In this document: in pieces, positions 36,916 to 39,873 of the stretch
Position numbering within the stretch: position 1 is the stretch's first letter
Layout of the letters: every line of letters starts with the position of its first letter
NCBI GenBank assembly: GCA_951406725.2
Contig: OX597832.1
Span: forward strand, 16,864,001 to 16,928,000
Reading direction: 5' to 3'
DNA: 64,000 bases
From: Octopus vulgaris
Taxonomy: Eukaryota
Made by a program: the position numbers and the translations under genes
Notes under the pieces: model-generated
Told to the model about the DNA's origin: nothing
The model's database searches: none
What the model saw: only the letters and a program-made list of their open reading frames with translations

Positions 36916-37887
36916 TCTTCTTCAGTAGGATACTTTTGGGGGCACCCCATGCTGAATTGCAAAATTCTAGTGTGATATTTGTGTAATAAAGAAATCAAAT
37001 CTCTAGTGTGTGTGTGTGTGTTTACATTACAAAGGCAATGTGTGCCAGACAGAAAGGGAAAGAGAACATTGCAAACAGTGACTGAAATAAACATGAAATG
37101 AAAAAAATCGTATCAATAAAAGCTCATTAAAAACTATTTTGTACCGAATATTTAAATTTGTGAACTTGAAATAATCAATAATAAAAGAAAGTTCAGAGAG
37201 TAAATTCTCCTGAAATCTTCAATTTATAAAAAGTTCTCACTTGCTTAGTAAATATTTATTTTAGTAATTTATCTTCGTTGTGATATATCTTTAATTTAAA
37301 CAATCTTAAAGTTAACCTAACTATATCCTAACTATATTTCACCTGCTAGAAATAGCAGTGATTAAATTGTTATTACTGTAAGGTTTATAGCGTTCCAAAA
37401 TGCGTATAGCGTTCCAAACAAAATCACTTGTACATGTTCTTTTAAAAATTATACCGGTAAAATAAAATTTTGCATCTTATCAAAAATATTTGTTTAACAA
37501 CCTCCGGAAACTGACATTATTCTTGAAAATCTGCATCCTGTCATAAGCCTGAAAGTTATACAGCTATTTCGTCTCAAATCAAAATTGGATAAATTCTTTA
37601 TAAGAATTTATCAAATAGTGAGCATGAAAACCTCATAAAGGAAAGATTTATAATTACCCCCTTTAAATATATTTATATGAAGGGCATTACTACACGTAAA
37701 TGCCTCACGCTATGAGGGACTCTTAACATCAAAACTACCATAATACATACAGTGTCCGGAACGCGAGAGAAAGCAACTCTTGAAGCGAACTCTTAAAAGT
37801 AAATATATCTATGTACTATGCTAGATACATTTGGTATTCGTCCGGTATGTTTATTTTTTCTTCAATTTTATGTATCTTGGATTATGC

Positions 37888-37947
37888 ATGAACTGACAAT
37901 TAAAAAATGCCTTTTGTGGACTAATTATGAAATCATATGATTTACAT
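37888..37947 (+). ncRNA. Degenerate hammerhead motif in array unit
   Basis: AUGAA-CUGACAA-(eroded stem II)-GAAA-UCAUAUGA-UU-UACAU. G8 is mutated. Confidence 0.45.
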
Positions 37948-38028
37948 CTGAATCTGTTTTTAAGAGTCTGCTTCAAGAGTTGCATTCCCCTGTGTTCGGT
38001 AGTTTTGATTTTAAGAGTCCCTCATAAC

Positions 38029-38259
38029 TATTTCTTTATAACCCACTAGGGGCTAAACACAGAGGGGACAAACAAGGACGGACATAGGTATTAAGTCGAT
38101 TACATCGACCCCAGTTCGTAACTGGTACTTAATTTATCGACCCCGAAAGGATGAAAGGCAAAGTCGACCTCGACGGAATTTGAACTCACAACGTAACGCA
38201 GACGAAATACCGCTAAACATTTCGCCTGGCGTGCTAACGTTTCTGCCAGCTCGCCGCCT
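38029..38259 (-). mobile_element. SINE family B, full length, nested in the array unit
   Basis: Family match. It interrupts CCCTCATA(A/G)CGTGAGGC with a short TAAC duplication. Confidence 0.9.
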
Positions 38260-38588
38260 TAACGTGAGGCATTTACGTGTAATAATGATCTTAATATAAA
38301 TAAATATATTAAAGGAAATAATCATAAATTTTTCCGTTATGAGGTTTTTCGCGCTGACTATTTGATAAATTTTTATAAAGGTCTTATCCGATTTTAAAAT
38401 TTTAAATTCAACGGGAATATATTCAGTGATGAATTTATTCTGAATATACACGTGTAGCGAGATGCAATGCAAAACGCCCACCTCTTACATAGATATATAA
38501 GAGCAAACATCTCTATGTACTGTACGGGATACATTTGGTGTTTGTCTGGTAGGTTTATTTTTTGTTCATCTTTAAGTGTCTTGATTAT

Positions 38589-38651
38589 GCCTGCACTGGC
38601 GATTAGAAAGTGTATTTTGTACACTTACTATGAAATCATATGATATGCGGC
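38589..38651 (+). ncRNA. Degenerate hammerhead motif in array unit
   Basis: CUGCA-CUGGCGA-U-UAG.AAGUGUA(uuuug)UACACUU.CUA-U-GAAA-UCAUAUGA-UA-UGCGG. Stems I-III pair and A6 is mutated. Confidence 0.55.
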
Positions 38652-39873
38652 TGAATCTGTTTTTAAGAGTTCGCTTCAAGAGTTGCATTCACTCGCGTTC
38701 GGTACAGTGTATTTATTATGATAGTTTTGACTTTAAAGGAACTTCATAGCGTGAAGCATTTACGTTTAGTAACGCCCTTAATGCAAATATACATATATAT
38801 GTATATATATATATATATATATATATATATATATATATATATATATATATATATATATATATATATATATATATATATATATATATATATATATATATAT
38901 ATATATATATATATATAAAGGAAATAATCATAAATTTTTCCGTTATGAGGTTTTTCGCGCTGACTATTTGATAAATTTTTATAAAGGTCTTATCCGATTT
39001 TAAAATTTTAAATTCAACGGGAATATATTCAGTGATGAATTTATTCTGAATATACACGTGTAGCGAGATGCAATGCAAAACGCCCACCTCTTACATATCT
39101 TTCCTGAGCGTCCAATAATACTATATTTGTTCCACGTCCTCGCATTGTTGTGTTTTTTTTGTGCTTTCTTGTTTGGATGAACTATATATATATATATATG
39201 TATATATATATATATATATATATATTTACATATATATATATATATATATATATATATATATATATATATATATATATATATATACATACATATATATATA
39301 TATATATATACATATATATATATATATATATATATATATATATATATATATATACATATATATTATATACATATGTATGCATGTATTCATCTATGTACAT
39401 TCTCACAGTGTATTCATGCTTTATGCATAATTCATGATGCCCGCGGTAAATTTATATTATATTATATTATATTCCAGTATATTTTACATAAGATATATTT
39501 TTACAACACTTCCAAATATTAGCATTGGCTTCCTAAGAGTGTAAATGTTTGAAATTGTATGGTATATTCATGGAAACCAACAGGATCGACTCTTCTGAAC
39601 CAATAATTGAAGACAGCAAATATTATTTAATGTATAATTTTGTTCAAATATTTTGCAACGAAAGTTTGCTCGCATTGTTATTATTTGGTGTTCGTCGTAG
39701 TTCTTGGCCTACTTACGAGAATTCAAGAAATGAATCTCAATTCAGAGATGATCCCTCGAGTAAGAGTAATATCTATTCATATTTGTTCATGTGTTCGTTA
39801 TTATTGTTGTTGTTTTTCGCTACTGGTTTTGTTGCTCTTGTTGCTGCTGCCGCTGTTATTGGTATTATATTCT

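Follow-up and report, generated by a model that had tools for sequence, protein, structure and literature searches.

Non-LTR retrozymes were described in 2020 by Cervera and de la Pena from coral, mussel, and axolotl (PMC7229834), and a 2026 preprint by Li, Clavereau, and Pollet (bioRxiv 10.64898/2026.07.22.740005) argues that retrozymes are non-autonomous Penelope-like elements (PLEs). The case for mobilization of animal retrozymes by PLEs has so far rested on co-occurrence and on similarity to the PLE pLTR. PLE insertions themselves have an arrangement of partial tandem copies, an inverted 5′-truncated copy, and a tail at one end only (PMC8557442), and the tail has been tied to two internal start sites of reverse transcription, with both target strands nicked and extended (PMC11167929); the word "inverted" has no occurrence in the main text of PMC7229834. 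The locus described here lies in a window of 64,000 nucleotides from Octopus vulgaris and is very probably, judging from its sequence and that of its relatives, an old and decayed copy of an ORF-less repeat of ~490 nt with a predicted hammerhead, which occurs genome-wide and was likely mobilized in trans by a PLE. The preliminary description had proposed a retrozyme or pLTR-like array, a reading now supported by the family core, by covariation, and by the PLE-type anatomy of the insertions. This ORF-less repeat bears a PLE-specific integration signature, the same as that of an intact PLE of the same genome.

Self-comparison of the window, on which the output of a generic repeat finder was dominated by microsatellites, resolved the locus (37,575–39,378) into four segments of the repeat, the two direct units being ~81% alike (Table 1). 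The inverted partial copy first placed at 37570–37798 is present with a slightly later start; it is without a hammerhead and without (TA)n beside its tail-site end. The stretch 38291–38310, which had been taken for a TA tract, is found again at the corresponding position of many further loci and is therefore a conserved part of the monomer, so that the period is ~489 nt and not the ~470 bp originally given. The middle of 37800–38290, described as a full unit, is another repeat, which makes unit 1 a partial copy, and only two of the four segments carry a hammerhead, where one per unit had been claimed. The SINE-like repeat within unit 1, a putative tRNA-SINE, is present four more times in the window in nearly complete form at 87–90% identity; no tRNA was found by ARAGORN. 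Copies of this repeat outside unit 1 lie at 4134–4610, 18912–19146, 45551–45789, 46255–46491, 48509–48601, and 63191–63956. The window also holds two-copy tandem repeats at 62456–62770 and 11340–11522 (periods 161 and 98) and, at 24001–26000, a segment with raised GC (0.425), a strong AT skew (+0.159), and no open frame of 140 aa, which is possibly a decayed retroelement.

Table 1 Coordinates of the hammerhead-repeat locus and of the family B insertion, in window positions
Feature	Position	Strand	Remarks
Family B monomer	7051..7506	-	459-nt period; "short" site in (TA)n; core 7227-7221, H17 near 7193
Short inverted arm of family B insertion	7513..7554	+	(TA)n follows
Inverted arm of family A insertion	37575..37798	-	Monomer ~351-489 + 1-~90; ends at "tail" 3′ site
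5′-truncated direct copy (unit 1)	37794..38310	+	Monomer ~188-489, with 19-nt deletion and SINE-like insertion
Decayed hammerhead 1	37880..37958	+	CUGACAA core, 37893-37899; stems I and II disrupted
SINE-like dispersed repeat inside unit 1	38029..38259	-	231 bp; 4-nt duplication TAAC
AT-rich monomer junction, conserved element sequence	38291..38310	+	Position of "short" 3′ end
Full family A monomer (unit 2)	38311..38790	+	"Short" 3′ site adjoining (TA)n
Hammerhead 2, type I	38583..38660	+	CUGGCGA (A6G) 38596-38602; GAAA 38632; H17 = A38645; palindromic stem III
(TA)n target microsatellite	38787..38917		3′ end of family A insertion
Exact 181-bp copy of 38311-38491	38917..39097	+	Ends at monomer position 181
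5′-truncated 3′ end of family C	39098..39186	+	Young TA-targeting repeat
Second half of (TA)n tract	39183..39378		Tract split by family C insertion

A search of the genome (2.8 Gb in 227 contigs) with the proposed unit 38311–38779 bore out a dispersed family, here called family A, with 916 first-look candidates, the best 40 of which were scored as dispersed, near-full-length copies at 80–86%. The monomer of ~490 nt is found throughout the genome and is ORF-less, the longest ATG frame being 31 aa (67 aa in family B, described below) at a GC content of 33%. The suggested consensus core CUGACGA is indeed the family A majority core: 35 hammerhead-bearing copies read UGACGA in 25 cases and UGAUGA in 6, and each of the two window variants occurs only once among them. 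The core pattern was passed by 34 of 42 other family A copies, and H17 is C in 19, U in 14, A in 10, and G in none of 43 (44 aligned copies, one with a gap).

The two cores reported in the window, each followed by GAAAUCAUAUGAU, were confirmed by this analysis. Positions G8 and A6 of the hammerhead core are conserved, and since these are the positions altered in the window, neither copy is likely to be active. The two defects had been called complementary, an idea that we reject because a double hammerhead still requires one intact CUGANGA; they have no functional meaning and both represent independent decay, CUGACAA being a change that fits ordinary CpG decay. The window locus is thus an old, dead copy with damaged ribozymes. 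The minimum free energy fold of the unit 2 hammerhead region is a three-way junction (z -1.82), and the region matches a one-mismatch descriptor, while the corresponding region of unit 1 has no three-way-junction fold (z +1.19) and fails the same descriptor. A further one-mismatch match at 2281 was discarded as being at chance level (0.57 expected per window).

Across family A, 92.5% of the cells of the type I structure are paired, compared to 27–43% in slid controls and 89.8% in shuffles, a test in which related sequences can beat the shuffles according to the tool's own warning. Compensatory pairs are present (CG17/UA10, AU25/GC10, and CG28/UA5) and track the subfamilies, so that they represent few independent events. 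Folding of the whole monomer with alifold gave little covariation (2 compensatory pairs among 60), and the circular folding strength of family A is not strand-specific (z -2.3 sense, -3.4 antisense). The 10 nt of stem III form a palindrome, and in both families A and B a pair of copies is predicted to cofold as a double hammerhead. Rfam returned only TA-repeat-driven microRNA matches among the 150 listed of 352 for the whole window, and at 37500–38785 only four chance snoRNA matches and no hammerhead, indicating that its models miss this motif.

The preliminary description had also pointed to a distant homolog with different stems that still pair, and this proved correct, as that copy has an intact hammerhead at 7227 (-) and is homologous to family A along the whole monomer. 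It belongs to family B, for which 1812 candidates were found, the best 40 being scored at 92–97%, and in which the cores are intact in 29 of 31 copies by the core pattern. The hammerhead at 7227 is the window's only strict descriptor match, and 30 shuffled windows gave 0.0 on average. Families A and B can be aligned over their full length, the hammerhead taking the corresponding position in each, and their middle regions align with a score of 44.5, compared to -12.5 ± 12.4 in 200 shuffles. Family B is younger than family A. Further related families have replaced stem II sequences in which the pairing is kept, and the claim of structural covariation holds; counting against it, the family B hammerhead motif prefers another hairpin when folded in isolation (z 0.08 and -0.25). 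Loci L081, L172, L048, L052, L126, and L078 represent such A/B-related families, at 70–80% identity, with another stem II at the same monomer position and a palindromic or near-palindromic stem III.

To describe the insertions, arms were mapped onto repeated monomers at 22 family B loci and 57 family A loci, 27 of the latter having been chosen with a junction query that favors tails. The arms have variable 5′ ends and two fixed 3′ sites, termed "short" and "tail", which are spaced by ~110 nt in family A and ~125 nt in family B. Family A arms (100) ended at the tail site in 45 cases, at the short site in 38, and elsewhere in 17, with corresponding counts of 14, 21, and 5 for the 40 family B arms, and of the 118 ends at one or other of the fixed sites, 101 adjoin TA repeats. 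Head-to-head inverted pairs, of which there were 37, combined a short with a tail end in 25 cases and two short ends in 3, never two tail ends, the other 9 having an unclassified end. When only body-selected loci were counted, 13 of 16 classifiable pairs were short + tail, 3 were short + short, and none was tail + tail; adding L024, where the gap is exactly at the cut-off, gives 14 of 17 (p = 0.006). Eighteen further family B sites yielded nine short + tail pairs, one tail + tail pair, and two unclassified pairs. The window locus obeys the same rule, with the tail site terminating its inverted arm and the short site, next to (TA)n, terminating its direct arm. Insertions of both families combine 5′ truncation with partial tandem copies, and no LTR-type structure was seen in the arm maps. 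Given that inverted A and B insertions mostly pair short with tail ends in the manner of an intact 1312-aa PLE of this genome, they are likely non-autonomous PLEs.

This points to a mechanism in which loci with two tandem hammerheads would be transcribed and the transcripts would cleave themselves as a double hammerhead via the palindromic stem III of the predicted ribozyme. The cleaved monomer would, on balance, be ligated to a circle, the other candidate template being an uncleaved multimer. A PLE protein with RT and GIY-YIG activities would then nick (TA)n on both strands, with cDNA starting internally at two sites, one per strand, and extending over 0.1–2.2 units before both cDNAs are joined head to head. 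Once inserted, the window copy would have lost both cores and gained the SINE, and a truncated family C element would later have entered the TA tract along with a 181-bp copy of neighboring DNA.

The nature of the template is the step at which this mechanism has its strongest rival. The longest arm measures 990 nt (2.15 units), arms pass through the cleavage site with no indels, and 5′ ends are not clustered at that site (within 6 nt in 1 of 40 arms in family B and 1 of 100 in family A), so that the template must have been intact there, either as a ligated circle or as an uncleaved multimer. Multimeric insertion, as first proposed, is therefore upheld with respect to a reverse transcription template longer than the unit, and the data are compatible with both a rolling circle and an uncleaved multimer. 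A linear, uncleaved read-through transcript of partial tandems, or jumping of the reverse transcriptase between RNAs, is a somewhat less likely substitute for the circle step, and for that step only; in this reading the hammerhead would be inherited from a pLTR and a circle would be unnecessary. PLE insertion in vitro proceeded from unprocessed RNA and was retained by hammerhead mutants, so that cleavage was dispensable in that system (PMC11167929). Arms are also never longer than ~2.2 units, with no larger arrays among the scored matches, and two of seven direct tandems in family A, including that of the window, mix subfamilies, which is impossible from one monomer circle. Weighing against a linear template, the core is kept in at least four divergent families despite replaced stems, which implies selection on cleavage, the tandem junctions lack indels at the cleavage site, and loci with two hammerheads contain a single hammerhead type in 8 of 8 cases in family B and 11 of 13 in family A.

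Copies within one locus are usually closer to one another than to those of other loci. Units 1 and 2 of the window differ at three subfamily-diagnostic stem II positions, and a second direct tandem of mixed subfamilies, in the order opposite to that of the window, is present at L059:1329–1897. These two tandems go beyond one homogeneous circle, and we infer from them (n = 2) that the template was switched or mixed, or that conversion took place. Two intact cores stand in tandem at 9 of 41 family B sites, though not at the window locus, and these nine sites could yield a circle. Contigs from three runs guessed to be RNA cover family B, one of them across the junction, a pattern to which a circle, tandem read-through, and DNA would contribute alike.

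A more specific form of the circle reading, offered tentatively and in our judgment rather unlikely, is that family B is a still-mobile circular retrozyme of 459 nt whose insertions record double priming by a single RNP on one circle. One PLE dimer would nick both (TA)n strands and prime the same circle at two different fixed sites, one for each strand. If true, single-RNP double priming would explain the short + tail rule and, in general, why Penelope elements have inverted repeats, and mixed-subfamily tandems such as that of the window would record switches between circles.

The segment at the far end of the locus has a separate history. Its identity to 38311–38491 was confirmed at 181 of 181 bases, and the copy stops at a monomer position that is not a family end and joins the family C piece directly, both lying between the two halves of one TA tract. 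Family C is very abundant, with 1274 candidates, including 39 other scored copies at 97–99%; its longer members measure about 230 nt, and upstream of the part present here they carry a minimal hammerhead-like motif. The two rounds of duplication in the preliminary description are not upheld by this arrangement, because the 181 bp are fused to the truncated end of a young family C element and do not form a second retrozyme round. The simplest reading would be one recent, truncated family C insertion joined to a templated copy of neighboring DNA. The hammerhead-like core of family C is usually CCGACGA rather than CUGACGA (L150–L160), and L155 holds a partial tandem of this family.

Misassembly at the (TA)n tract, which would account for the 181-bp segment only, is improbable. 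In its favor, such an error might leave an identical duplicate next to a long TA repeat, no local copy of this kind was present at the junction in the 11 other family C loci viewed, the 39097/39098 junction is spanned by no contig in four public runs, and in one of these runs a contig over 39016–39097 continues with other letters. The four runs, however, cover no more than 35% of the words in a stretch of the window and may come from other individuals, and the youth of the family C piece next to it would agree with a copy that is still identical. We therefore retain the family C insertion as the preferred account of this segment.

Knowing that the footprint of families A and B is of the PLE type, the autonomous PLEs of the genome are of interest. 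An RT fragment near one locus led to a very young PLE family with many frames of 1310–1312 aa, two 3′ ends ~55 nt apart, (TA)n targets, and a short + tail combination in both of the resolvable inverted loci, L107 and L108. Pfam gave no match to the long ORF of this PLE, and its RT and GIY-YIG motifs were read by eye. At L107–L114 (e.g., L109:2763–6698, +), the ORF is intact at 1311–1312 aa in many near-identical copies; both 3′ ends lie within its first codons, and the pLTR contains a hammerhead-like motif (CUGAUGCG...GAAA) that is atypical, its stem III being very short. A Penelope-like ORF of this genome is 99% identical to a predicted Octopus vulgaris protein. A GIY-YIG search uncovered more PLE families, one of them with 781 aa (L125, L130, L141, and L142). 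This family ends in (TA)n and has tandem TGACGTC-containing repeats in its 3′ region, with a variant hammerhead-like motif near the end.

A partner sharing the 3′ ends of A and B did not emerge from the loci searched, which, together with their tail of 110–125 nt against the ~55 nt of the local PLE, counts against the PLE reading. No homology to the A/B 3′ end or pLTR was seen in 33 RT loci (from the best 150 of 2019 candidates), where only the A copy itself matched, and 30 GIY-YIG loci (from the best 150 of 6136) gave one non-coding A/B-like copy and otherwise E values of 0.014 or weaker. Junction-selected A/B loci had no PLE ORF upstream, and fragments of PLE protein were detected by tblastn in only two family A loci (L018 and L013), in both cases beyond a TA tract. 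A motif search of the supplement of PMC8557442 returned 0 matches, though line breaks in that file can mask a match, and the published octopus Naiad motif has 0 exact matches in the genome.

Truncated pLTRs have been reported to account for the majority of hammerheads in PLE-rich genomes (PMC4209133), and the footprint of A and B is the same as that of autonomous PLEs, which would suit segments that are 5′-truncated pLTR ends of an autonomous PLE and not an independent non-autonomous element. This is nevertheless very improbable, as the monomers run head to tail with no RT or GIY-YIG ORF between them, the tblastn fragments are confined to the far side of the TA tract in those two loci, and the seamless 489/459-nt period largely refutes it. 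Growth of the array by two local rounds of minisatellite-like tandem duplication at the DNA level, with the 181 bp as the second round, has the 100% identity of that segment in its favor, compared to 80–86% for the others, and is scarcely credible given the dispersal of the family, its RT-type 5′ truncation, and the fusion of a copy that breaks off at position 181 to a young family C end between TA halves. A MITE or other DNA transposon was rejected, as the inverted arms are optional and variable in length, with two different end sites and no fixed terminal inverted repeats. A non-autonomous, PLE-mobilized hammerhead repeat remains our preferred reading of the locus.

The closest described relatives are the retrozymes of PMC7229834, which share with families A and B a short, low-GC, ORF-less unit, one type I hammerhead, and a proposed mobilization by PLEs. 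As described there, their monomers are ~170–400 nt, compared to 459–490 nt in A/B, and circular RNA has been shown for them, a form that A/B may share. A/B mostly have 1–2 units per site, with inverted arms and two fixed 3′ ends. The preprint of Li and colleagues (bioRxiv 10.64898/2026.07.22.740005) reaches the same conclusion on origin, and its consensus range of 51–972 bp and its monomer-rich families cover A/B. Its stated sample comprises 31 vertebrates, 3 insects, and a coral, with no molluscs named, and its argument is based on co-occurrence and pLTR homology, whereas the basis in octopus is the insertion footprint and, unlike in that argument, no homologous pLTR was found for A/B in the loci searched.

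With EN+ PLEs (Craig et al. 2021, PMC8557442; Frangieh et al. 2024, PMC11167929), A/B share partial tandems and an inverted 5′-truncated copy, as well as a one-sided tail, insertion into (TA)n or AT-rich sequence, and a pair of internal starts of reverse transcription; they differ in having no ORF and a tail of 110–125 nt, compared to the 30–40 bp given in PMC8557442. Chlamys elements such as MRC1 are likewise non-autonomous PLEs with pLTR-like head-to-tail insertions, but they have a 3′ sequence in common with autonomous families and belong to a clade described as without canonical hammerheads (PMC8557442), whereas A/B have a hammerhead, and a 3′ partner was not found in the loci searched. 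The minimal hammerheads of PLE pLTRs share the palindromic helix III that permits a dimeric active fold (PMC4209133), and with a helix III of 3–4 bp and a long, bulged stem I, the A/B ribozymes would be nearer to the canonical type I than those are. A literature search found no paper on hammerhead retrozymes in cephalopods, subscription journals and Repbase/Dfam entries lying outside that search. The young 459-nt family B offers a small, testable substrate for the circularity of the PLE template and the origin of inverted PLE ends. Taken on its sequence features, the octopus family is likely another case of the known non-LTR retrozyme class, with an unusually clear insertion footprint.
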